Shown here: positions 4,402-18,738 of the stretch, in pieces
Numbering within the stretch: position 1 is the stretch's first letter
Layout: each line of letters begins with the position of its first letter
Origin: Candidatus Hydrogenedentota bacterium
GTDB taxonomy: Bacteria > Hydrogenedentota > Hydrogenedentia > Hydrogenedentales > GCA-2746185
DNA length: 18,874 nucleotides
Assembly: GCA_046583315.1 (NCBI GenBank)
Contig: JAYGCN010000092.1
Location: 1 to 18,874, forward strand
Direction of reading: 5' to 3'
Program-made: the position numbers and the translations under genes
The notes under the pieces: model-generated
Databases searched by the model: none
Told to the model about the DNA's origin: nothing
What the model saw: only the letters and a program-made list of their open reading frames with translations

Positions 4402-6186
4402 TCAGTGATGATCGTACCAGATGGGCGAGGAATACGCGCGCTCCTGAATCGTCGTGGCGTGATCGGTGGGAATCGGTATTCCCAGTTCTTTGGCATCAAA
4501 CATGCTCCAGCGTGGCGTTGGGATTTCGAGAACACGCACATAATAGAACGCATTTTGATCCGCTTTGAAATTGGGATCGCTCCAGGTGCCCATCAACTCC
4601 ACCGAACCCACCGAGTTCGAATATTCGAGCGTGTCGAGATTCACCGTGTTCTTGATCGCCGGAACTTTTCCGGTTTTGGAATCCTTCACCCGATCACCTG
4701 ACCACACGGCATCGTATACCTGTTCGTGACTCTCACCGTTTTCGATCCACCCTTTCACGACTTGAAAGCGATCCAGATTCGCGCCTTCAGCATCTTTGAT
4801 CGCCCACAACGCGAAGGTAGGTGCGTCGCCCGCTTGGGTCGCTTTCAGTTCTCCGCCCATCGGAACGCCGCCGGCATAGGCCGCATTGACCCAGCCGTCG
4901 TCACCCGGTTTTACATCGGCCATATCGAATCCGCCGAAGAAACGAACCTGAATCCGCGGTCCACTCGTGCCCCAGGTTTCTTTTCGGTCCAACGCGTCAA
5001 AGATGTCCTCGCGGGTGTTTTCATCGGCCCATACGCCGGCCAATCCAGACGCGCCAAAAAAGCTGTACCGTTGTTTTCCGGCGTCCGAGACAAGCCTGTT
5101 CTCCGGTGAGCCGTCTCGCGAGCTGATTTTGCCGGAGAATTGATTTTCATCGACAGGCACGATGCCCGTGTGGCTATCCGAGGCCGCGATGAGTCCGAAT
5201 CGGTAGGGGTTAAAGCCGTTTTCCTCCTGAAATTCAAGGCCCGTGCGGTAGGCATCGCGCACGTAGCTGCCTTTGAACTTCGTAATCGGAATCGGCATCG
5301 CAACGTACAGTTCCAGCAACTCGAAATCCGCGAACTCATCGTTCGGACTCAATGTCGGGTGTGTTTCGGAGGTCCCCTTCACCTGAGTCACTTCCACCAG
5401 GCGCTCGTTGCGATTCCGGGCTTCCGCATACTCTTTGGTGAAGGGTATATCCCAACTATCCTCGCGTTCGAACATACGACCGTCCGAAAGATTGGAGTTG
5501 TGCGGAATGGCGAGCACCTCGTTGCCTTCTTCACGTACTTTGTCCATCCATGCCCAGAGGTCTTCGGGGCGATCCGACTGAATGCGTGTGAATGGAATTG
5601 GAGCCGTGTCGCCCCTGAAGATCACATTGCGATGCAGATTTTGTGAGTTCGGCGTACTCGTCCATTCGTAGCCGATCAGTGCTGTGAATGTGCCCGGATC
5701 GTTGTGTCGATTCGCGGAGTCGATGATATGGTCCCATGTCTCCTTCATGATCGCGGGATCGGTCAGACCCCGGATCAATGCCGGAGTCGCAGCACCACCG
5801 ACGATATCGCGAAAGGCTGAAGACATGATATCCGGGTCAGGGCTGTTTACTTTATTCGCGATGGGCAATTTCGACAAGGGATGCGTGGGGTCAGCCATTT
5901 TCGCGAAAGCACCCAGAAACATTCCGTGATCGGTGACCGCCATGAAATCGAGTGGACGGGTCAGTTGATAGGTCTTGCCCAACGCGTGTTTCAGCGGCTT
6001 GCCTTTTGCGAAGTTATAGGCGTCGTCCGGCGTTGCGCGGGTGTTGAACAGGTAAGCGTCGAAGGACCACGCCGTATGCATGTGCAATTCGCCGAACAAC
6101 GCTTTGCGGTTGGCTTCTTCGCTGTAGGCGGTCGTGCTAAGAGCCACAATCAACCCGGCTACCCAAATATGCTGAAATGTCTTCAT
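4402..6186 (-). CDS. Secreted DUF3604 domain protein (PHP-like metal-dependent hydrolase fold)
   Basis: Signal peptide; FGELHMHTAWSFDA, LDFMAVTDH, GYEWTS, NLHRNVIFR, IPHNSNLSDG, KGTSETHP, SDSH, YYVRVLEIPTPRWS and IQERAYSSPIWY. SD AAGGAGAG supports ATG 6186. Confidence 0.88.
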   Translation of the reverse strand: MKTFQHIWVAGLIVALSTTAYSEEANRKALFGELHMHTAWSFDAYLFNTRATPDDAYNFAKGKPLKHALGKTYQLTRPLDFMAVTDHGMFLGAFAKMADPTHPLSKLPIANKVNSPDPDIMSSAFRDIVGGAATPALIRGLTDPAIMKETWDHIIDSANRHNDPGTFTALIGYEWTSTPNSQNLHRNVIFRGDTAPIPFTRIQSDRPEDLWAWMDKVREEGNEVLAIPHNSNLSDGRMFEREDSWDIPFTKEYAEARNRNERLVEVTQVKGTSETHPTLSPNDEFADFELLELYVAMPIPITKFKGSYVRDAYRTGLEFQEENGFNPYRFGLIAASDSHTGIVPVDENQFSGKISSRDGSPENRLVSDAGKQRYSFFGASGLAGVWADENTREDIFDALDRKETWGTSGPRIQVRFFGGFDMADVKPGDDGWVNAAYAGGVPMGGELKATQAGDAPTFALWAIKDAEGANLDRFQVVKGWIENGESHEQVYDAVWSGDRVKDSKTGKVPAIKNTVNLDTLEYSNSVGSVELMGTWSDPNFKADQNAFYYVRVLEIPTPRWSMFDAKELGIPIPTDHATTIQERAYSSPIWYDHH

Positions 6187-6287
6187 GCCCACTCTCCTTG
6201 AAATCGATTTAGATTATTGTAAGAACACGATACGGCAGGATGTCACCGGGAACAGTCTCCACGAAACACGGTCAACATTCAAACTTC

Positions 6288-7568
6288 TTATCCAGGCGAC
6301 GCTTTGCCCTCATTCCAGCGTGTCGCCGTCAGCAACGCTGCGATGATCGAGAAAATCACGAAGATCGGAAATATCCTGTCCCAGCCGTATCGGCTTTCAA
6401 TCGTCGCGACCAATATGGGAGACAAGGCCGCACCGATGGACCCGATGCCGTTGATGATACCGGCCGCCATTCCCGCGGCCTTCTGTGAGCCGATGTCCAT
6501 CGCGCCCGCCGCGGTCATCAATGCATCCGGGCCGAAAGTCATGATGCCGATCAATGAGAGACCCAGAATGTTCAGCCAGCCCTTCTGCGCAGCCAATGAC
6601 GGATAAATGAAGCAGGCGATAGCGAGACCAAAGAGCATGAAGCAGGCCACCGGAAATCGCCGCGAACCCATCAGTTTATCCGAGGCATAACCGGCAATAA
6701 TGACGCCAAAGAATCCAGCCAATTCGAATACCGTGGAAGCGTATCCCGCTTCGTCTACTTCGTAGCCCACAGACCGTACCATGAACATGGGAAGCCAAAA
6801 CAGGAAAGAGTAACGGATCATTTTGAGAAAGAAGTACATTGCGCCCGTCGTCCAAAGGGCCTTGGATTTTAATACCTCTTTCCAAACAGCAACGACGTTG
6901 TCCTCGTCACCCTCTTCTCGCTTATCAAGACCCGGTGTCGGTTCTTCAAAGTCTTTAAAGCCCGCATCCGAGGGTCGATTCCTGCCGAAGACGATATAGC
7001 ACACTGCAATGACCAGCAACGCCGCGGCAGGCGCATAAAAACCGCGACGCCATCCCAGATGCTCTAAAAACGGCGCGTTGAACACAGCCCAAGTCGCGAA
7101 AGCCGTTGCAAGCGCCCCGCCCAGGGCATAACACGTGCTCCACCACGCCATCACCACGCCTCGTTCCTCAGGGTGGAACCACGTAGACATATTCTTGATC
7201 ATGCCGGACCAGCCTGTCGATTGAGCGTAGCCGTTAACCACATACATCAAGCCGAGTAGCGTCAATGAACTCGCCGCGATTCCCATAAATACATTCGACG
7301 CGACGGCTACAAGGAGGCCGAGACCGACCACCAGCCGCGGGCCGAATCGATCGGACAGAAAGCCGTTCCCAAATTGCCCGATGGCATAAATCGTGAGATA
7401 ACCTGTCAGAATTATAGCGAGGTCACTTGTCGTGTATCCCAGGTCCTCCTCCAGCGTGGGCATGATCACACTAAAGTTTTTTCGACACAAATAAAAACCA
7501 GCGTACACAAACCACGTCAGCACGAACATTCGGTAACGCCAGAAGCGTAGGGAGTTTGAAATTGCCAT
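6288..7568 (-). CDS. MFS transporter, organophosphate:Pi antiporter (GlpT/UhpT/OPA) family
   Basis: About 12 hydrophobic segments; YAGFYLCRKNFS (GlpT R45/K46 region), GFLSDRFGPR, WFHPEERG, KMIRYSFLFWLP (R269 region) and AGYASDKL. Start placed at MAISNS (7568) rather than the ORF-finder 7661. Confidence 0.88.
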   Translation of the reverse strand: MAISNSLRFWRYRMFVLTWFVYAGFYLCRKNFSVIMPTLEEDLGYTTSDLAIILTGYLTIYAIGQFGNGFLSDRFGPRLVVGLGLLVAVASNVFMGIAASSLTLLGLMYVVNGYAQSTGWSGMIKNMSTWFHPEERGVVMAWWSTCYALGGALATAFATWAVFNAPFLEHLGWRRGFYAPAAALLVIAVCYIVFGRNRPSDAGFKDFEEPTPGLDKREEGDEDNVVAVWKEVLKSKALWTTGAMYFFLKMIRYSFLFWLPMFMVRSVGYEVDEAGYASTVFELAGFFGVIIAGYASDKLMGSRRFPVACFMLFGLAIACFIYPSLAAQKGWLNILGLSLIGIMTFGPDALMTAAGAMDIGSQKAAGMAAGIINGIGSIGAALSPILVATIESRYGWDRIFPIFVIFSIIAALLTATRWNEGKASPG

Positions 7569-7678
7569 AGCGTCGAGTATACCGAATGCCATGAGACTGT
7601 TGTTAGCGACCTTCGACAGCGTTGACACCGCCGAAGGCATATCGTTCATGCCGACCGTCAATTTGTTACAATGAAGAT
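7569..7678. promoter_or_regulatory. Divergent promoter region, both transcripts probably leaderless
   Basis: Plus strand: TGt-TACAAT (7664-7672) lies 6 nt before ATG 7679. Minus strand: TATACT (7581-7576) lies 7 nt before ATG 7568. Neither start has a clear SD. An imperfect inverted repeat TTGAC..GGCAT / ATGCC..GTCAA spans 7622-7661. Confidence 0.55.
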
Positions 7679-9172
7679 ATGACTAATAAACAAGCTGTTG
7701 ATACGATTGAAGAAAAGCAAAAATCTCATGGGTCGCCAATTCGCACCGCCGTCATCCTCGCCGCAGGAAGGGGTATCCGCTTGAAAGAACGCGGAAAACT
7801 GACCCCAAAGGGTTTTCTGCAGTTGGGTGAGAAGCCGATTATTGAGGAGTCCATTGTGCGTCTTCTGAGCGTGGGCATCAAACGTATCGTAATCGTCACG
7901 GGACATCTCGCTGACCAATTCGATGCTTTATACGATCGCTATCCTGACACCGTGGAACTGGTACACAACCCGCATTACGCCGATTCGGGTACGATGTATT
8001 CTTTGTTTTGTGTGCGCGACTGCGTGAACGAAGCGTTCTTATTGTTGGAAGGGGATCTCGTTTATGAACGCCGGGCGCTCACCACATGCCTGGAACATCC
8101 CAATGACAACATTCTATTGGTAGCGGGCTTTTCGAATACCAGCGACGAATACTTTGTGGAGTCAAAAAACGGTAACTTGGTAACCATTGCCAATGATCGG
8201 GCTCGTCTGGGTGCTGAGGTAGGGGGTGAGATGGTCGGCATTAGCAAAATCTCGCGATCCTTGTTTACTGTTATGTGCGAGACTTCAGAGCAGCGCTTTG
8301 GAACAACCCGTCACTTGGGGTATGAGATGGACGGACTCATTTCGGCAGCACAAGACATCCCCATAGCCTGTCCCGTCGTTGATGATTTGGTATGGTGCGA
8401 AATCGACGACGAGACGCATCTCGCGCGAGCGCGTGAAGAAGTGTACCCGCTTGTTCGCAAAATTGACGTGGAGCACGCGGGACAGAATAGCGATATCAGC
8501 AAGTTCAAAACGGTTGGTTTTTTTGGCGAACGCGAATTGATTATCAATCATGTTCGCGATTTTTATGAAACCGCGAATAAGCATCAGATTCGCTCGTGCA
8601 TCATGTTTGGCACCTTGTTGGGTCAGCTTCGTCACAACGATTTCATCCCTTGGGATGACGATGTCGATATCGTCATATTCGACTTCGATACGTTCCGGGA
8701 GCACTGCGTACCCGAACTGGAGCAGCAGGGATATACCGTCGAGCCGGATGTTCGCCTCGGGAAAAGAATGGGATGCCGACTTTTCCGCGACGACAGCGCA
8801 GCAGTTCCCGGCAAGCCCCGCCTACGATTTCCCTGGATAGGAATATGGGAACATGAAATAGGAGATGACGGGCTCGTCGTTCTACCCCCGGAAGGCGCAC
8901 GGTATAAGTTGGAGGATTTTCTCCCCATAAAGCAAGTCGACTTTCTGGGCATTCAGGTCGGAATTCCTCATGATTCCCAAGCAATCATGAATACCTGTTT
9001 CAATTCTGAGGACTGGATGGATGTGTGTCAGTTACCCTATCGCGATCATCGAAACGGTGGCGAACTTACCGGCTGGTCAGATCATAAATTCGACCTCCAG
9101 ACTGTTTTGGACTATCTTGATTCAGATGCGTCTTCTAATTCGGATGATATCTCCACGAACGTTTTCCAATGA
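7679..9172 (+). CDS. Fusion of an N-terminal PntC/LicC-like (phosphonate/phosphocholine) cytidylyltransferase and a C-terminal LicD-family phosphotransferase
   Basis: N-domain: AVILAAGRGIRL..PKG, LLLEGDLVYE, GEMVGISK, WCEIDDETHL. C-domain: FGTLLGQLRHNDFIPWDDDVDI (LicD/fukutin signature). One continuous frame. Confidence 0.88.
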   Translation: MTNKQAVDTIEEKQKSHGSPIRTAVILAAGRGIRLKERGKLTPKGFLQLGEKPIIEESIVRLLSVGIKRIVIVTGHLADQFDALYDRYPDTVELVHNPHYADSGTMYSLFCVRDCVNEAFLLLEGDLVYERRALTTCLEHPNDNILLVAGFSNTSDEYFVESKNGNLVTIANDRARLGAEVGGEMVGISKISRSLFTVMCETSEQRFGTTRHLGYEMDGLISAAQDIPIACPVVDDLVWCEIDDETHLARAREEVYPLVRKIDVEHAGQNSDISKFKTVGFFGERELIINHVRDFYETANKHQIRSCIMFGTLLGQLRHNDFIPWDDDVDIVIFDFDTFREHCVPELEQQGYTVEPDVRLGKRMGCRLFRDDSAAVPGKPRLRFPWIGIWEHEIGDDGLVVLPPEGARYKLEDFLPIKQVDFLGIQVGIPHDSQAIMNTCFNSEDWMDVCQLPYRDHRNGGELTGWSDHKFDLQTVLDYLDSDASSNSDDISTNVFQ

Positions 9173-9858
9173 GTCTAGATCAGTGGAAGTATCCAGCACT
9201 TGCAAAGCCGGACTCGGACGGTGCCTACACCTATCATGTACAGCGGCGCATATCGGCTCCTCTCACGGTTCGACTCACGAACTATATTGGGCCTAACACG
9301 GCAACCGGTATTGATTTGACTTTCGGCGTAGCCGCCGCAATCTTGGTGGCGCTGGATTACTGGATATTGGGAGTAGTGTTTATTCAGATTTTCGGAATAT
9401 TTTCGTGTGTGGATGGTGAAATCGCACGGATTCAGAATCGACCGTCACGGATGGGTGATTTCCTGGACACGTTGACCGACAGACTTACCGAATTATTACT
9501 AGTTTGCGCAATTGCATGGTCTCTGTTCGAGCGTCTGGATTCGGTGAGTGGCTTAATCACCGGTTTCGGATATCTTGGCGGCGTTTTCCTGTTAACGACG
9601 AGCTCGGAAAAATTCCGCTCCGTCTGGAAAATGAATTACCCCAAGCGGAAACTGGAGAAGATCTTCGGGCTCTTCTGCGGAGGGAGCGACAGTCGCCTGC
9701 TGATGTTATCCATCGGCCTATTCGCGAGCGAGTTGACCGGAGATGCTTCGATTCTACTCTGGCTCCTACGGATTTGGGCCGGGGCTATGTGCATCAACTT
9801 CGTAGTGCGGATCGGACTGATCTACCGCCACTTCGATGGCATAGATGACACTGAATAA
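9169..9858 (+). CDS. CDP-alcohol phosphotransferase family protein, DIPP synthase-like
   Basis: SCVDGEIAR..(x7)..GDFLDTLTDR motif, N-terminal DG..(x5)..RRIS..GPN, and multiple transmembrane segments. ATGA overlap with the upstream stop codon. Confidence 0.85.
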   Translation: MSLDQWKYPALAKPDSDGAYTYHVQRRISAPLTVRLTNYIGPNTATGIDLTFGVAAAILVALDYWILGVVFIQIFGIFSCVDGEIARIQNRPSRMGDFLDTLTDRLTELLLVCAIAWSLFERLDSVSGLITGFGYLGGVFLLTTSSEKFRSVWKMNYPKRKLEKIFGLFCGGSDSRLLMLSIGLFASELTGDASILLWLLRIWAGAMCINFVVRIGLIYRHFDGIDDTE

Positions 9859-10568
9859 TGACGAAAATCGTCGTGAGTGATATCGCCCAATTTATTTCTG
9901 AACAAGATTCCCATTGCCTTATTCTCGCCCGACACGGTGAAACCGAGTGGAACGCGGTCGGGAGATTACAGGGTCAACAAGATACTTCGCTCAATGAGAA
10001 AGGCATGGGACAAGCATCAAGGGTCGCCCGATTATTGGCGAAAGTCTCAATCAATCAGATTCATGCCAGCACGCTGCAGCGGTCCCAAAAAACCGCACAA
10101 CCCATCGCTGAGCAAAATATCAATGAACCAGATATTTTTCCAAGCCCTCTACTAAAAGAAACGGCACTAGGCGTACTCGAAGGCGAAATGATTGCACAGC
10201 AGTCGACGCCTGAACTGACCCGGCACTACCAGGATTTCTCCCGTGATGAGATCAATTATCGGATTCCCAATGGCGAAAACTTGCACGATGTTTTCGCGCG
10301 GGTCGAGCGATTCTTCAAAGCCCAAGATCAACTCTTGAAGAAGACGGGAGTCCATGTGATCGTTGGGCATCGAAACCTGAACAAAATGATCATCAAGTAT
10401 CTTCTCGGATTGTCATTTGAAGACGGATTTCAAGTAGAGCATAAACATGAACAGCTATACCTCTACTTTGGTACCCGGAAGGAATTATGGTTCTGCGGAA
10501 TCAATGGCGCTCAATCCCAATTCACTCAAGGGCACAGTACCATCGAAGGCGGCCCAAGCTACGCCTAA
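9858..10568 (+). CDS. Histidine phosphatase (phosphoglycerate mutase-like) family protein
   Basis: LARHGETEWN catalytic motif, STLQRSQKTA, LKETALGVLEG, GENL and VGH. TAATG overlap with the upstream gene. Confidence 0.92.
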   Translation: MTKIVVSDIAQFISEQDSHCLILARHGETEWNAVGRLQGQQDTSLNEKGMGQASRVARLLAKVSINQIHASTLQRSQKTAQPIAEQNINEPDIFPSPLLKETALGVLEGEMIAQQSTPELTRHYQDFSRDEINYRIPNGENLHDVFARVERFFKAQDQLLKKTGVHVIVGHRNLNKMIIKYLLGLSFEDGFQVEHKHEQLYLYFGTRKELWFCGINGAQSQFTQGHSTIEGGPSYA

Positions 10569-10623
10569 TAAATGGTGCGATGAAAGCTTCGATGTCCGGG
10601 TAGGTCAATGAGTAAGTAATCAT

Positions 10624-10688
10624 TGGTCATCAAATTCAATGTTTGCTACACTAGCAGTCCGAAATCTTTCGAAACCGTTGATTCGGAC
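10624..10688 (+). promoter_or_regulatory. Putative internal promoter and 5' hairpin upstream of phnX
   Basis: TGGTCA (10624-10629), a 17-nt spacer, then TGc-TACACT (10644-10652). Inverted repeat GTCCGAAATC (10657-10666) / GATTCGGAC (10680-10688). Confidence 0.45.
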
Positions 10689-10731
10689 GAAGACCACAAT
10701 CTATAGACATCCAAGAAGGGACAAAACGATT

Positions 10732-11547
10732 TTGGGCGGCTCGCGAAAAGGAATATCATTGGTCGTCGCTGACATGGCCGGAACATTGTGCGATTACGGA
10801 AGCAGCGCACCGGCCGCCGCGTTTGTGGAATTGTTCAAGCGCCACGACATCACCGCAACCGATGCCGAGGCGCGCGTCCCCATGGGCCTTCAAAAACGCG
10901 ATCATGTTGAAACGATGCTGAAGATGGACTCCATTGCTGACCAATGGGCTGCCATAGCCGGTCACCCTTGGAGTGAAGCCGATCTGGATGCGCTCTATGC
11001 CGACTTCATTGGCATCCAACTCGGCGTGTTACCGGATTACACCGATCTTATCCCGGGAATCCTGGAAGCCATCACCACGATTCAAGAGCACGGTATCGCA
11101 GTCGCCGGAACCACAGGGTACGACACAGAAATGATGGCCATCGTGGTCGCCGGGATGGCCGATCAGGGGGTGAAACTGGATGCTGCCATCTGTGCCACGG
11201 ACGTCGCCGCTGGTCGACCTGCGCCGTGGATGATTTTTCGCGCGATGGAAGCCACGCAGTGCTCCCCACCGCATACGGTCGTGAAAATTGGCGATACCCT
11301 GCCCGATGTCGAAGCAGGCGCACGCGCGGGCGTCTGGTCCATCGGAGTCACTGACACCGGCAACATGGCCGGATGCAACAAGCCGACTTGGGACGCGTTA
11401 TCCGAATCCGAACAGGATTCCCGGCGAAACAAAGGCACGGCTGAAATGAACGACTCAGGTGCACACTACGTCTTGGCAAGTGTGGCCGAGTTACCTTCCA
11501 TCATCGAAAAAATCGACCAACGTATTCTCGCCGGGGAGAAGCCATGA
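10732..11547 (+). CDS. phnX: Phosphonoacetaldehyde hydrolase (phosphonatase, HAD superfamily)
   Basis: DMAGTLCDYGSSAP (motif I), ARVPMGLQKRDH (cap with the Schiff-base Lys), TTGY, GRPAPWM and VKIGDT..D..AG..AGVWSIGV. TTG 10732 after GAAGGGA is preferred over ATG 10639; the start is uncertain. Confidence 0.88.
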   Translation: MGGSRKGISLVVADMAGTLCDYGSSAPAAAFVELFKRHDITATDAEARVPMGLQKRDHVETMLKMDSIADQWAAIAGHPWSEADLDALYADFIGIQLGVLPDYTDLIPGILEAITTIQEHGIAVAGTTGYDTEMMAIVVAGMADQGVKLDAAICATDVAAGRPAPWMIFRAMEATQCSPPHTVVKIGDTLPDVEAGARAGVWSIGVTDTGNMAGCNKPTWDALSESEQDSRRNKGTAEMNDSGAHYVLASVAELPSIIEKIDQRILAGEKP

Positions 11548-12875
11548 AATATGATGAATCAGAAGGGGATATCAACGTCTCCCCGGAGCGCAACGAGTGG
11601 CAAGAACGCCACCTGAACGATGAGACTCGGGCCCTTCTGGAAGAAGACTCCCGCTATTTCATGCACCAGGCCCTTTCGACGCCCTGCCTCAATGTACTCA
11701 CCAACAGCGAAGGAAGCACCTTTCAGGATTTCGAAGGACGACGTTATCTGGACTTCCACGGCAACGCCGCGCATCAGGTTGGATTCAATAACCCTGCGGT
11801 AATCGACGCGATAAAATCACAGCTCGACACTTTACCCTTTTCTCCACGACGATACACCAACGAACCCGCCATCCGTCTCGCCAAACGGCTCACCGACGCG
11901 GCGCCCATGGAAGATGCACGGCTTCTCTTCGCACCCGGTGGTGCCGAAGTCAACAGCATGGCCCTGCAATACGCGCGACAGGCCACAGGACGGTTCAAAA
12001 CCATAAGCTTCTGGGAAGCCTTTCACGGCGGCACACTCGACACCATCAGCGTCGGCGGCGAAGCCATGTTCCGTTCAGGCGCAGGCCCATTAATGCCCGG
12101 TGCCATCCATGTGCCCCCTCCCCGTGTGCAAACATCCGGTTGGGAAGAAAGTGTCGCACACATTGAATACGTCATGGAGCACGAAGGCGATATCGCCGCG
12201 TTCATCGCAGAACCCATCCGCTGCACCAACATGTATCAGCCGCCGGCCGCCTACTGGCAAGCGGTTCGCGACGTCTGCGACCGAAACGGCACGCTGCTCA
12301 TCTTCGACGAAATTCCCATCGGGCTTGGTCGCAGTGGATACATGTTCTGCAACGAATACACCGGCATCGTGCCCGATATCATCACGCTGGGCAAAGGGCT
12401 CGGCGGCGGAGTAGTACCTCTCGCGGCCATGATTGCCCGCGCCGATCTCAACGTCGCCGGAAACCGGGCCATCGGACATTTCACCCACGAGAAAAGCCCC
12501 GTCGCCTGCGCAGCGGGAAATGCTGTACTCGACATCATCGAAAAAGAGTCGCTCGTGCAACGCGCCAATTCAAAAGGTGCACGATTCAAAGATAGCCTGG
12601 AACAACTCGTCCAGCGGCACGATTGCGCCGTCAACGTACAAGGAATGGGATTACTGCTCGCCCTCGAAGTAGAATCGAAATCCGCAGAACAATCCACCTC
12701 CGAATTGACCAACCGACTTCTGTACAGCTGCCTGGAACGTGGGCTGAACTTCAAAACCTCCAACGGACGTTACATTATCCTGACCCCGCCGCTCACGGTA
12801 TCTGAAGACGGGATCGACGAGGCGGTTGCCATCATCGATTCCGCCCTGACCGATGTCAGCGAGGCCTGTGCGTGA
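11544..12875 (+). CDS. pbfA: Class III aminotransferase-fold PLP enzyme, likely (R)-1-hydroxy-2-aminoethylphosphonate ammonia-lyase
   Basis: Class III motifs FDEIPIGLGRSG and TLGKGLGGG (PLP Lys). Segments SEGDIN, HQALSTPCL, DFHGN, LPFSPRRYTN, LFAPGG, FHGGTLDTISVGGE and FTHEKSP match my recollection of the PbfA family. ATGA-coupled to phnX. Confidence 0.8.
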   Translation: MKYDESEGDINVSPERNEWQERHLNDETRALLEEDSRYFMHQALSTPCLNVLTNSEGSTFQDFEGRRYLDFHGNAAHQVGFNNPAVIDAIKSQLDTLPFSPRRYTNEPAIRLAKRLTDAAPMEDARLLFAPGGAEVNSMALQYARQATGRFKTISFWEAFHGGTLDTISVGGEAMFRSGAGPLMPGAIHVPPPRVQTSGWEESVAHIEYVMEHEGDIAAFIAEPIRCTNMYQPPAAYWQAVRDVCDRNGTLLIFDEIPIGLGRSGYMFCNEYTGIVPDIITLGKGLGGGVVPLAAMIARADLNVAGNRAIGHFTHEKSPVACAAGNAVLDIIEKESLVQRANSKGARFKDSLEQLVQRHDCAVNVQGMGLLLALEVESKSAEQSTSELTNRLLYSCLERGLNFKTSNGRYIILTPPLTVSEDGIDEAVAIIDSALTDVSEACA

Positions 12876-14077
12876 AAGAAACCTATGCGGTAATCGGTGC
12901 GGGACCGCTGGGCAGTTGTGCGGCAAGAGCACTCGCCGATGCATTTGAAGACGAAAACCGATCGGCCGAAATCTTGCTCATCGATGCCAACGACCCACTC
13001 AATCAAAAATTCGATTCCTTGTCCGCAGCGGGACCCCATGCCGCAGGCCAACTGATGCTTCATTTCTTCGATGCGGACAGCTCGGCCAAAGACCTGACCC
13101 GTCGCTCCCACGAAATTCTCAAAGGCCTGAACGCAGAAGGTGCCGTCGATCTCCATTCCAGACCCTGGATATGTTGTACCGGAAACACCAACTCCGAATT
13201 GGACACCACTGCACAGGAGGGATTGGCCCAGTCTTTCTCCGAAGGAAGACTGGAAGGCTGTGAACTCGTCCGAGGCGAAGAGTTACCCGGCACGAAGGGA
13301 CTACGAGCCGACCAGGTCGCGTGGGCACTGCTCGATCCCACCGGGATGGCCGTAAACCCGCGCGTCTTCGTGCAGCAACTCGCCCAACGCGCGATTCAGC
13401 ACCCCATGATTGAGGCCCACTTCCATACCCGCGTGACTCGATGCAGCCACAACACGATCACCACTGAATACGATGGCGTGACCACCGAAGGGCCCGTGAC
13501 AGGCGTAATTTTATGTACCGGAATCCATCGCGATCTGTTTACCGACGCGCTGCCCGATGGCAGGCCCGAATTTCTTCACGTCACCGAACATAAGGAAGTC
13601 AGCCATCGCCCGGAGGTCATGCACCTCATTTCCGGCGAAACAACCATCGCACGTTACGCCGGATTCGGTCCCCATCGAGAGAAAATCACACCGCTTCTAC
13701 CCGAAAACACGCAGAAATACGGTATTCACGGATTGTTCACCGACGTACCCGGATTGCGCCGCATGTTGGACAGCCACTTCGAAAACGAAGACCTCGCCGA
13801 ATCCAAAAACGATCTCGTATGGTCATTACTTCGCGAAACCATCGGACGATACATACAACCCGAAATGCTGCTCGGGCATTCGGCAAGCAACCGCGAAACG
13901 AATCTATCTTACGTTGCCGCATACAATAAACTATTGGATAGCGACGGACCCTACCTCGAACAATTACCAGTCGAAATGCCGACCGTGCACGTTCAACCCA
14001 GCAACGGACTCGGTCTGAACCAGTGCGCGGCGTTGGGGGCAGATGCCGCTTCTCTCCTGATGGAAGTCACGGGCTAA
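12872..14077 (+). CDS. FAD-dependent oxidoreductase (DAO/glycine oxidase-like), divergent phosphonate-associated amine oxidase
   Basis: VIGAGPLG Rossmann motif, VNPR, VILCTG, ARYAGF..YGIH..DSH and a C-terminal NGLGL..AALG. GTGA-coupled to pbfA. Confidence 0.75.
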   Translation: MKETYAVIGAGPLGSCAARALADAFEDENRSAEILLIDANDPLNQKFDSLSAAGPHAAGQLMLHFFDADSSAKDLTRRSHEILKGLNAEGAVDLHSRPWICCTGNTNSELDTTAQEGLAQSFSEGRLEGCELVRGEELPGTKGLRADQVAWALLDPTGMAVNPRVFVQQLAQRAIQHPMIEAHFHTRVTRCSHNTITTEYDGVTTEGPVTGVILCTGIHRDLFTDALPDGRPEFLHVTEHKEVSHRPEVMHLISGETTIARYAGFGPHREKITPLLPENTQKYGIHGLFTDVPGLRRMLDSHFENEDLAESKNDLVWSLLRETIGRYIQPEMLLGHSASNRETNLSYVAAYNKLLDSDGPYLEQLPVEMPTVHVQPSNGLGLNQCAALGADAASLLMEVTG

Positions 14078-14904: not shown

Positions 14905-16233
14905 ATGAGCAAAATTACACGACGTGAGTTCGGCGCGGCAGCTGGTGCAGGCCTGCTTTTGCACCCGGTGTTGTCCAGCGCGGCTGAATCCGGCGACACC
15001 AAAGGAACGACTGGCCCGATGATCGGTCATGTTTCCGAGACCACTGTGGAGATATGGTTTCGACCCGCGAAAACGGGAAAATATACGGTCGTTGTATTTC
15101 AGGACGACAAAGAGATTCGTCGCGCCACGGAACGCTCACTGAGTGAGAACGATCAATGCCTGACTTGGCATGTCCGGAGCCTAAAAGCGAAAACCCGGTA
15201 TCATTACAGCGTGCTTGACGATGACGGCTCGGTTGTTGCCGGATATACCAGTGACCATTACTTTGACACGGCACCCGACCCGAATAAACTCGGAAAGGTC
15301 TGCCTTGCATTCGGGTCCTGCGCGCATGCCAAGCCGCTGGAATTGTGGAAACAGATACACGACCAAGGCGCGCAAGGGTTGGTGCTTCTCGGCGACACAC
15401 CCTACATAGACTCTACTCGTCTGAGCATCGCGCGACGAAAACAACGCGACTTCCTGGCGGTGCCTGATATCGCGCAACTCATTCGCAACACGTCGATCTG
15501 GGGCACGTGGGACGATCACGACTTTGGAAAGAATGATTCAGACGGCACCTTGCCCGGCAAGGAGAACTCCCGACAGGCTTTTCTTGAGTACCGCGCCAAC
15601 GCGAATTACGGGCACGGTTCTGAAGGCATCTATACCCGCTTTCGATACGGCCCGATCGAAGTATTTCTGCTGGATACCCGATGGTTCGCGCGAACGGAAA
15701 CGTCCCCCGTTGATCCGTCTAAACCGACCCTGCTCGGCGCGCGCCAATGGGCTTGGCTGAAGAAATCACTCAAGGGATCCACGGCCCCCTTCAAGATTAT
15801 CGCGTGCGGCATGATTTGGGATGACAAAGAAAATGGCGAGTCGGATGACTGGGGGACCTATTCCCACGAACGTTCGGCCCTGTTTGACTTCATCGGCGAG
15901 AAGAATATTTCGGGCGTGGTCCTCATCGGAGGCGATATCCATTGTTCCCGCCTGCTTCAATACAAAACGGAGCAACAAGTCGGTTATCCGATTCGACAAT
16001 GCATCGTATCGCCGATTCACGACAGCACGATTCCCTCGCTAAATGTCGCGCACCCGGATTTGATTCACGGCGCGGCGATTCCCCACGTGTGGTTACGTGT
16101 CGAAGTGGATACCACCGCATCACCCGCCACGTTCAAAGCGGACTGGGTGCAAAAAGACGGACAGGAAATGTGGGCACTGGAACTCGATGAGAATGATCTC
16201 ACCAGACCGGGCCGAGGGAATCGTAGCGTTTAG
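14905..16233 (+). CDS. phoD: Tat-exported alkaline phosphatase D family metallophosphatase/phosphodiesterase
   Basis: Twin-arginine signal TRREFG and an FN3-like N-domain. Motifs [28 protein letters not shown] and GGDIH. SD AAGAGGA. Confidence 0.88.
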
Positions 16234-17363: not shown

Positions 17364-17505
17364 TTCACTAAGGAACTTCACAACACGACACCCGACTTCC
17401 GAGTAAATTTCATAACCTTGGGGGAAATTATACACTATATAAGTGAATTCGCGTGTAAACGAATTGGGCTCATTTGTAGTCAAACAGGCTATGAGGAGAA
17501 AACCT

Positions 17506-18738
17506 ATGCGATCCATCGTGTGTTCAGCTTTCGCGCTGATTGTAGTCAGTTCCGCGTTCGCCACCGATCTCTCTGCGCGTAAAATCAGTGATGAGGCGTG
17601 GCGCGCGGACATCAATGAATACATACAATTGGTGAAAGATACCCACATCGATATGTTTCATGCCGTGTCTGAGCAGGAATTTCAGCAGGCCGTGGATACC
17701 TTGCTGAGTGTGGTTCCGGCGATGAGCGACGAGGATATCGCTATGGAGATGGTGGCACTTGCGGCCCTGATTGGCGACGGCCACACCTGGACCAGTTTCG
17801 GCGAAAAGATCGTGCCTGCTTACCTCCCGCTGACGGTCTATGAATTTGAAAACGGAGTGTTTATCACGCAGGCCCTGTCACCCTACCAAAGACCACGTTG
17901 GCAAACGACTGACCCATGTGGCCGACGTTCCTGTTGATCAGTTGGTTCTTCGCGCCCCTCGATATGCCTCTCGTGACAACGAATGGGGCCTGCTTCGATC
18001 GCGCGCACAATGGCTGGTGAACGAAGCATTTCTGGTACACGAGGGAATCGTTCAGAAAGGCGAAGATTTATCCGTTACCCTTTTGGCATCCGACGGGAAA
18101 GAGGAGCGTGTCACGCTAAAGGCTATCCCCAGACAAGAATACGTGGACGGCTTGGAGAAAATCCCCGCGACTCCCGATAGTAAGTTGCCGTTGTATCGAC
18201 AACGCGGTTCGGAATTTTACTGGATGAGCTATTTGGCTAAAGAAAAAGCACTCTTTGTCAAGTTCAATGCCGTGCGCGATGCTGATGAGGGGCCTCGACT
18301 TGGAGAATTTACAAACGATATGCTCGCGCTCATTGATTCAAATAAAGTAAAAAGCTCATCATTGATGTACGTCATAATGGCGGGGGAAACGGTGACCTCA
18401 CGCGACGCCTTGTACGCAAAATATCCACCAACGAACGAATCAATCAAAAGGGCAAATTATTCGTCATTACCGGGCGGCAAACGTTCTCTGCGGCATTGAT
18501 GTTCACCGCACGCATGGAACGCCGGACGGAGGCCTTGTTCGCGGGACAGCCCGGAGCTGGAAAACCCAATTCGTATGGCGAATTCAACCCATTCACCCTG
18601 TCGAATTCGCAGATGTACGGAAGCATCTCATCGCGATGGCACGAGGAAGGTGAACCCGACGACACACGTGAATTTATTCCGGTCGATATTCCCGCCCCGC
18701 TTAGCTCGGAGGCCTTTTTCTCAGGACGCGTTTATTGA
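17506..18738 (+). pseudogene. Secreted S41-family peptidase-like gene with two frameshifts and a truncated 3' end
   Basis: SD AGGAGA, ATG 17506 and a signal peptide; GDGHT in frame 1. A +1 shift near 17884-17890 leads to KDHVGKRL..FVKFNAV in frame 2. A -1 shift at the A-run 18349-18353 returns to frame 1: KLIIDVRHNGGGNG..GRQTFSAA..GKPNSYGE..IPVDI. Confidence 0.82.

Follow-up and report, generated by a model that had tools for sequence, protein, structure and literature searches.

A candidate salvage locus for aminoethylphosphonate in a Hydrogenedentota bacterium, with a pepM-free tailoring cassette between a transporter gene and phnX

Layout of the locus

The window analysed here is an 18,874-bp stretch of DNA from Candidatus Hydrogenedentota bacterium (assembly GCA_046583315.1, contig JAYGCN010000092.1), which carries seven genes for the predicted handling of aminoethylphosphonate (AEP) and related aminophosphonates. 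Our explanation, on which we judge the balance to be even, is that a tailoring cassette lacking pepM, ppd and aepZ sits between an importer gene and the phnX genes and salvages imported AEP. A gene for an OPA-family major facilitator superfamily (MFS) protein, by its family profiles a predicted AepP-like antiporter of aminophosphonate and inorganic phosphate (Pi), lies on the minus strand (6288-7592) and diverges from two triplets on the plus strand. The first triplet encodes a PntC-type cytidylyltransferase (residues 21-259) fused to a LicD-family phosphotransferase (7679-9172), a CDP-alcohol phosphotransferase closest to IPCT/DIPPS and AF2299 (9169-9858), and a histidine phosphatase of branch 1 (His_Phos_1) with its RHG motif intact (9858-10568). 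The second, 163 bp further on, comprises the phosphonoacetaldehyde hydrolase gene phnX (10732-11547, in a frame open from 10639), pbfA (11544-12875) and a gene for an amine oxidoreductase using flavin adenine dinucleotide (FAD) (12872-14077). All seven open reading frames (ORFs) are intact, and stop and start codons overlap within the triplets (ATGA at 9169-9172, TAATG at 9856-9860, ATGA at 11544-11547 and GTGA at 12872-12875). ORFs, profiles and overlaps thus bear out the gene calls, strands, overlapped triplets and divergent transporter of the original prediction. PhnX and PbfA pass curated cut-offs, and the remaining five products are named at superfamily level only.

From spacing and homology to a related locus, L102, we place the MFS start at ATG 7592 or 7568 rather than TTG 7661, that of the fusion gene at ATG 7679, and that of phnX probably at TTG 10732. 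Inspection by eye suggested an extended -10 box (TG-n-TACAAT, 7664-7672, plus strand) 6 nt before the fusion ATG, which would speculatively imply a leaderless start. A -10-like hexamer directly before the ATG also occurs in loci L104 and L014 and in none of the other 19 loci compared, that is, in only 3 of 22 sequences. A promoter and terminator scan of the window gave no more than chance would (6 where 6.3 were expected, and 8 where 9.5 were) and did not pick up the box at 7664.

The window is an entire contig (C266) of a 4.65-Mb bin of 355 contigs that is 96.7% complete and 5.4% contaminated. Near-identical DNA is listed for marine and hydrothermal-vent metagenomes, with six runs from four studies, one of them perhaps the source, holding at least half of the sampled words. 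Contigs of other public runs bridge the junction of the MFS and fusion genes (X2, 4501-8149; X7, 7500-7904), while the gap between the phosphatase gene and phnX is fully spanned by none of the pieces listed (167 more are unlisted), X7 extending to 10610. Run X2 gave no cover at about 9420-14000 with 66% of the run read, and this gap was not used as evidence.

As the original prediction stated, pepM, ppd and phnW are absent from the window, and a search of the genome at its 96.7% completeness also found none of them. Three full-length proteins exceed the cut-off for the PEP_mutase family (PF13714) and two partial ones also match; we rejected these as PepM, since the full-length proteins are only 23-31% identical to true PepM and none of the matches carries the EDKxxxxxNS motif, which a six-frame search of the genome did not find either. 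The best ppd score was 48 bits against a cut-off of 312 and the best PhnW/AepZ score 186 against 361, and PhnJ, PhnA and a close AEP ABC transporter were likewise not found in the genome. Across the host phylum, pepM is present in 2 of 135 genomes.

The tailoring cassette and its link to pepM

We recovered 63 loci from GTDB, 24 of which contain a match of 53-71% identity, in hosts from the Verrucomicrobiota, Planctomycetota, Pseudomonadota, Acidobacteriota, Gemmatimonadota and Hydrogenedentota and in a deltaproteobacterium. The complete triplet, in order, is present in 16 loci, two of which end within the phosphatase gene, leaving 14 with readable downstream DNA. In 9 of these 14 the triplet runs directly into pepM, with ppd visible in eight and aepZ in six, which ties the cassette to phosphonate chemistry, namely that of AEP. 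Among more distant cytidylyltransferase loci (35-43% identity), 19 of 21 lie beside pepM and/or ppd. In the host phylum, the transferase family of the cassette turned up in 1 of 135 genomes, and in a Verrucomicrobiales sample in 3 of 351; it is matched by 465 protein clusters (90% identity) at E<=0.001, and no relatives were found in the viral contigs or plasmids searched. The triplet is a mobile marine phosphonate cassette, rare and patchy in its distribution.

In a tree of PntC domains, the window copy forms a clade with those of L104, L026, L030 and L052 (SH-aLRT 94), with L014 next (81), and this subclade is nested among pepM-linked copies. Adjacent pepM is seen in none of the six, and no pepM over the cut-off turned up in the five searchable genomes, a single-contig chromosome record among them. 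On such a record, one copy of IS481 lies at a distance of about 600 bp from the pepM-less triplet of L014 (373-13497), and a second copy is found about 7.6 kb upstream.

These searches bear on whether the triplet is simply half of an ordinary biosynthetic cluster whose pepM, ppd and aepZ fell in the unassembled part of the genome. Genomes G063 (L029) and G141 (L021) do carry pepM on contigs other than that of the cassette, and a bin of 355 contigs invites such a split, but it is highly improbable when none of the three genes was found in a genome of this completeness, pepM is so rare in the phylum, and the searchable genomes of the subclade and L014 lack it as well.

The fusion protein matches the families NTP_transf_3, with the PF12804-type fold of PntC enzymes, and LicD. 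Compared with solved structures, its cytidylyltransferase domain is closest to PntC of Treponema denticola (Tde-PntC, 6PD1, E 1e-46), with LicC (1JYK) at E 6e-18. The PntC-type motif GxG(T/S)R-x-PK appears as AAGRGIRL...TPK, its R and K kept, and E124 and E216 correspond to E104 and E196 of Tde-PntC, positions held by Asp in LicC. In PntC these two Glu contact the amine of AEP, and on steric grounds they favour AEP over phosphocholine (PMC6697681). The same work defines PntC by proximity to ppm, and neither the window nor the genome places the gene near pepM. Assignment to LicC and the Lic pathway fails on the missing Asp pair and the greater closeness to PntC, and a choline-kinase-like gene sits on another contig. 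Since no solved structure is nearer than PntC, and pepM follows in 9 of the 14 readable relatives, AEP is the likely substrate of the cytidylyltransferase, in support of the AEP-like substrate first proposed. In the LicD domain the GTLLG...DDDxD motif is intact.

Lys153 of Tde-PntC contacts the phosphonate and is partly conserved, and the K153A enzyme retains less than 10% activity (PMC6697681). The window enzyme has N172 at this position. Four of the five subclade members carry N, R, T and T there, compared with K in all 18 other close-clade members; K is kept in L104, and pepM-linked Reichenbachiella enzymes have Q. We therefore considered that the pepM-free subclade has abandoned phosphonates and activates phosphoethanolamine (phosphocholine being less likely) in a Lic- or Kennedy-like manner. 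Beyond the Lys replacements, three subclade members pair with a PssA-like transferase, and the choline-kinase-like gene, on contig C135, has a homologue directly after the MFS gene in L102. Such a switch is nonetheless decidedly unlikely, as both AEP-favouring Glu are kept, L104 keeps the Lys, pepM-linked Bacteroidota enzymes also do without it, genomes G064, G065 and G143 gave no match to the choline kinase family, and the neighbours of the cassette in the window are phosphonate genes. The three pairs (L026:4486-6008, L030:8920-10512, L052:7419-9023) consist of stand-alone PntC-like genes of the subclade and the PssA-like CDP-alcohol transferase, in genomes with no pepM and no choline kinase match, and are possibly a second salvage route, leading to phosphonolipid.

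The CDP-alcohol phosphotransferase matches the profile of archaeal IPCT/DIPPS and AF2299 at E 1e-16, against 7e-5 for phosphatidylinositol phosphate (PIP) synthase, and shares with the former an N-terminal DG-x7-RR-x-S helix. Its predicted fold (pLDDT 81) is nearest to 4MND (TMq 0.72), with PIP synthases next (TMq 0.65-0.70). It scores 80 bits on NF041135 against a cut-off of 580, which was set for the bifunctional protein, and the full DxxDGxxAR...GxxxDxxxD motif is absent, the first Asp being Ser79 in 44 of 44 aligned sequences and so throughout the family. Residues D82, D100, D104 and R105 align with D71, D89, D93 and R94 of Mycobacterium tuberculosis PgsA1, whose D68 corresponds to the invariant Ser. 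PgsA1 residues R94, S132, K135, R155 and R195 form a pocket for the phosphorylated acceptor (PMC6506517), and from the DIPPS alignment we infer that the invariant S145, K148, R176 and R214 are the counterparts of these acceptor-pocket residues. A phosphorylated acceptor would explain the histidine phosphatase next door, which is the third gene in all 16 complete triplets. Inositol phosphate was rejected as this acceptor because ino1 (PF07994) was found in only one of five triplet genomes, and not in that of the host; glycerol-3-phosphate is our guess. Sequence and modelled fold alike, in their closeness to archaeal DIPP synthase, suggest that the product is soluble, a phosphonate ester formed with a phosphorylated polyol.

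A synthase followed by a phosphatase fits lipid pathways as well. Salvage could accordingly be right in outline and wrong in its product, with LicD moving AEP to a polyol and the transferase lipidating it from CDP-diacylglycerol before dephosphorylation, as in the PIP and phosphatidylglycerol phosphate synthase routes. PIP synthases are the next-best folds, the best NCBIfam match of the LicD domain is a glycolipid cholinephosphotransferase (far below cut-off), and genes for CDP-alcohol transferases have been noted in clusters predicted to make phosphonolipids (PMC8942020), yet we give this variant little credence, as both sequence and fold, including the N-terminal helix, are clearly nearer IPCT/DIPPS and AF2299. 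Moreover, L028 (8866-9855) has lost the LicD core in frame from its fusion and still keeps pepM-ppd-aepZ and the transferase.

Uptake and breakdown genes

The transporter scores best against TIGR00881 (247 bits, below the cut-off of 407.75) and is 79% identical to the MFS that diverges from phnX in L102. Its clade has seven members, four beside phnX and three beside aldehyde dehydrogenases; six more loci have other OPA-type paralogues next to phnWX. Among named proteins, a Pseudomonas MFS is the closest relative (37% identity), its gene lying two genes from that of a PhnR-like regulator. AepP itself is an OPA-family MFS and a proven AEP permease encoded beside phnWX (PMC8316502), and the window gene shows the same co-location of an OPA-family MFS with phnX. 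By analogy, import of AEP-like compounds, as originally proposed, is plausible for this transporter. Close orthologues (51-66% identity) in L164, L165, L167 and L169 have an aldehyde dehydrogenase gene nearby, two of the four an iron alcohol dehydrogenase gene as well, and none is accompanied by phn genes.

PhnX scores 304 bits on TIGR01422 (cut-off 220) and contains DMAGT and MGLQKRDH, which we take to be the DxxGT nucleophile motif and the Schiff-base Lys motif. PbfA, whose gene overlaps phnX, scores 608 bits on NF049939 (cut-off 525) and is 43% identical to a class III aminotransferase-family gene in a Vibrio phnW-phnX cluster. In the host phylum pbfA occurs in 42 of 135 genomes and phnX in 31 of 61.

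The flavoprotein is a DAO-family member (PF01266) with the glycine/sarcosine oxidase fold at 13-17% identity. Its family is small, with 20 clusters at 90% identity, 6 of 135 genomes of the host phylum, and 11 matches at E<=1e-3 among 1.84 billion representatives, a number so low that, with regard to PbfB and PbfD2, it speaks against the oxidase being part of a widespread family; a metagenome scan with the single oxidase returned nothing and one with an alignment three loci. The oxidase scores 28 bits on TIGR03364 (cut-off 285). Run against the FAD gene in the phn cluster of Azospirillum B510, the family profile reaches 10.8 bits, and two genes from Acinetobacter clusters give about 6 bits; we took these genes as PbfC and PbfD1 from context and not by accession. 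By these comparisons the oxidase belongs to a rare, isolated family distinct from the PbfC and PbfD1 cluster genes tested. PbfD2 replaces PhnW beside phnX (PMC10590968), and close members of the present family follow phnX or pbfA; from fold, neighbours and this analogy we predict that the oxidase takes the place of PhnW, giving phosphonoacetaldehyde from AEP or N-methyl-AEP. No phn genes were found near distant members (34-41% identity; G003, G092-G094, L103), and for this reason we claim a phosphonate role only for the close subgroup (at least 57% identity).

Further genes touch on this chemistry. On another contig of the same bin (G000:C355:1-4374, L206) one end of a pbfA-like gene is accompanied by an oxidase copy of 71% identity that carries one internal TAA and by genes for an OPA-type MFS and an iron alcohol dehydrogenase. 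The dehydrogenase (best NCBIfam TIGR03405, 189 bits against a cut-off of 424) might reduce phosphonoacetaldehyde; given its atypical codon usage (2nd-7th percentile), this second locus may be of foreign origin or a contaminant. Choline-kinase-like and dimethylglycine-dehydrogenase-like (FAD plus GcvT) genes follow the MFS gene in L102 (3443-6747) and recur at G000:C135:1006-4337, and in G061 (L178:9133-14018) two GcvT-like genes follow phnX-phnW; all of these are candidates for demethylating N-methylated aminophosphonates.

Elsewhere in the window, a gene for a PhoD-like phosphatase with a probable Tat signal (14905-16233, plus strand) lies 830 bp from the locus; it has four paralogues in the genome, and a 40% homologue also adjoins the triplet in L020. 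A DUF3604 gene (4402-6192, minus strand) has at least eight more copies or fragments in the same genome at 64-71% identity, and two overlapping ORFs of 164 and 219 residues in different frames (17443-18499, plus strand), with no Pfam match, resemble one exported protein split by a frameshift.

A mosaic locus and the case for AEP salvage

L102 has the same MFS diverging from phnX (72% identity) and the oxidase gene (74%), at 70-73% DNA identity, and has neither triplet nor pbfA; G006 likewise has phnX and the oxidase gene without pbfA. The triplet and pbfA are thus most simply later additions to a locus of divergent MFS and phnX-oxidase genes. Codon usage agrees with the triplet being the newer part, its genes scoring in the 4th-20th percentile of 2605 genome ORFs, as against the 33rd-81st for MFS, phnX, pbfA and oxidase. 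The locus is a mosaic in which each triplet is a module of its own with its own history. The idea of a conserved seven-gene unit is not supported: the phnX, pbfA, oxidase and MFS genes are in none of the 63 GTDB loci. The only other co-location is in L104, where an intact triplet, opposite a different OPA-type MFS gene, has a phnX remnant of 144 bp and two remnants of the oxidase gene at its flanks; the catabolic genes there are no longer whole.

On the concatenated triplet (887 codons, 11 loci), window and L104 are sisters (support 100/99). The two differ by a proportion of synonymous differences (pS) of 0.745 and a nonsynonymous divergence (dN) of 0.21, with no stop codons over the 887 codons, and the window triplet stands at pS 0.70-0.79 and dN 0.20-0.25 from every relative. 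Three-point dS estimates were discarded as unreliable at such synonymous saturation. By this sequence comparison, saturated synonymous sites with low dN favour long-maintained salvage over a fresh accident, and that the cassette has lasted so long without pepM speaks for the use of an imported substrate.

In the pathway that we propose, the MFS would exchange Pi for external AEP, 1-hydroxy-AEP and N-methyl-AEP, and PntC would make CMP-activated AEP (CMP-AEP). With no PhnW, this second step would be fed only by intact imported aminophosphonate. The DIPPS-like transferase would then attach AEP to a small alcohol that carries a phosphate, glycerol-3-phosphate being the most likely, and this phosphate would be stripped by the histidine phosphatase to leave a glyceryl-AEP-type phosphonate ester, an identity that we put forward only tentatively. 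The LicD domain could transfer AEP to a second hydroxyl acceptor, for instance a glycan or glycolipid. In parallel, PbfA and the FAD oxidase would deliver phosphonoacetaldehyde, which PhnX would cleave to Pi and acetaldehyde. Salvage in some form, with scavenged AEP serving both for nutrition and as a building block, is the best reading, and we lean towards it with modest confidence; the interpretation originally given is thus supported in part, in a mosaic rather than a conserved operon.

Several observations weigh against salvage. Besides N172 at the Lys153 position and the Ser in the first motif of the transferase, they include the three MFS-clade members without a phn gene in the DNA examined and the five of 14 readable triplets without adjacent pepM, which lie in unrelated settings (pepM elsewhere in two genomes, none over cut-off in three). 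Loss and decay of the cassette are common, given its degraded state in L027, the lost LicD core of L028 and the insertion sequence (IS) copies near the triplet of L014. The genome is a bin of 355 contigs with 5.4% contamination, and no second intact seven-gene locus was found, L104 retaining only remnants of phnX and oxidase. Window and L104 are also the two longest branches of the concatenated tree (window terminal branch 0.27, median 0.13), and three of four listed strain polymorphisms in the fusion gene are non-synonymous, against 7 of 16 in the MFS gene, a weak sign with 40 of 107 differences shown.

Much of this would fit a passenger or relic, a cassette inserted by chance into the gap between MFS and phnX genes, its substrate supply lost and with no functional tie to its neighbours. 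The patchy, mobile and often truncated state of the cassette, the rarity of its transferase family in both genome samples, the lost Lys, the non-synonymous polymorphisms and the longer terminal branch all suit that account. We consider it unlikely, if worth keeping in view, because the synonymous sites are saturated and yet all three ORFs remain intact along with their overlaps and catalytic motifs, the sister copy in L104 also lies within phnX and oxidase DNA, and a whole subclade has persisted without pepM.

Each part of the locus has a known analogue. The Lic phosphocholine pathway runs from import (LicB) and a kinase (LicA) to LicC and LicD. Salvage as proposed here would share its logic of head-group import, CMP activation and LicD transfer, but the locus has no kinase (a phosphonate needs none), a cytidylyltransferase nearer PntC than LicC, and an importer of the OPA-family MFS type. 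The IPCT/DIPPS route leads to di-myo-inositol phosphate. Like that of Archaeoglobus (PDB 4MND, 4O6M), the cassette combines a cytidylyltransferase, a closely related CDP-alcohol phosphotransferase and a phosphatase, and differs in the proposed CMP-phosphonate donor, in the Ser for the first Asp, and in that ino1 was not found in four of five triplet genomes. Pnt clusters of Treponema denticola and Atopobium rimae (PMC6697681) also hold a PntC-type cytidylyltransferase and a LicD-like transferase, with pepM-ppd-aepZ in relatives, whereas here PntC and LicD form one fusion protein, the next two genes encode a DIPPS-like transferase and a histidine phosphatase, and no pepM was found in the genome. 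The breakdown genes resemble hydrolytic AEP catabolism (PMC10590968, PMC12366243), where phnX, pbfA and a PF01266 flavoprotein occur without phnW as in the PbfD2-PhnX route, and the OPA-type MFS beside phnX recalls AepP systems (PMC8316502); the differences are a flavoprotein that shares no more than its fold with the PbfC and PbfD1 cluster genes tested, and the presence of a tailoring cassette inside the locus. Our literature search found no description of the combination, the cassette, the oxidase family or bacterial AEP salvage; most subscription papers fell outside it, and a prior mention is possible.

Phosphonate producers are counted by pepM, and according to one survey, of the marine genomes that carry phosphonate markers fewer than 1% combine production with consumption (10.1101/2020.11.04.368217), while the steps after CMP-AEP are called unknown in PMC6697681. 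We offer as a doubtful but specific proposal that the cassette, as a widespread deep-marine module, makes a soluble AEP-polyol phosphonate ester in the manner of DIPP synthase and so fills in the steps after PntC, and that in one lineage it has been freed from the synthesis of carbon-phosphorus (C-P) bonds and tied instead to the uptake of AEP and to a new family of PhnW-replacing flavoenzymes. The rare flavoprotein is a candidate for a further family of AEP or N-methyl-AEP oxidases, and the three-gene cassette, occurring with and without pepM, offers a ready test system for the steps that follow CMP-AEP. If salvage is true, there would be bacteria that install phosphonates without making them, invisible to pepM-based surveys, and beside producers and consumers a third role, that of cells which recycle intact C-P units into new esters through a pepM-free module in a catabolic locus.

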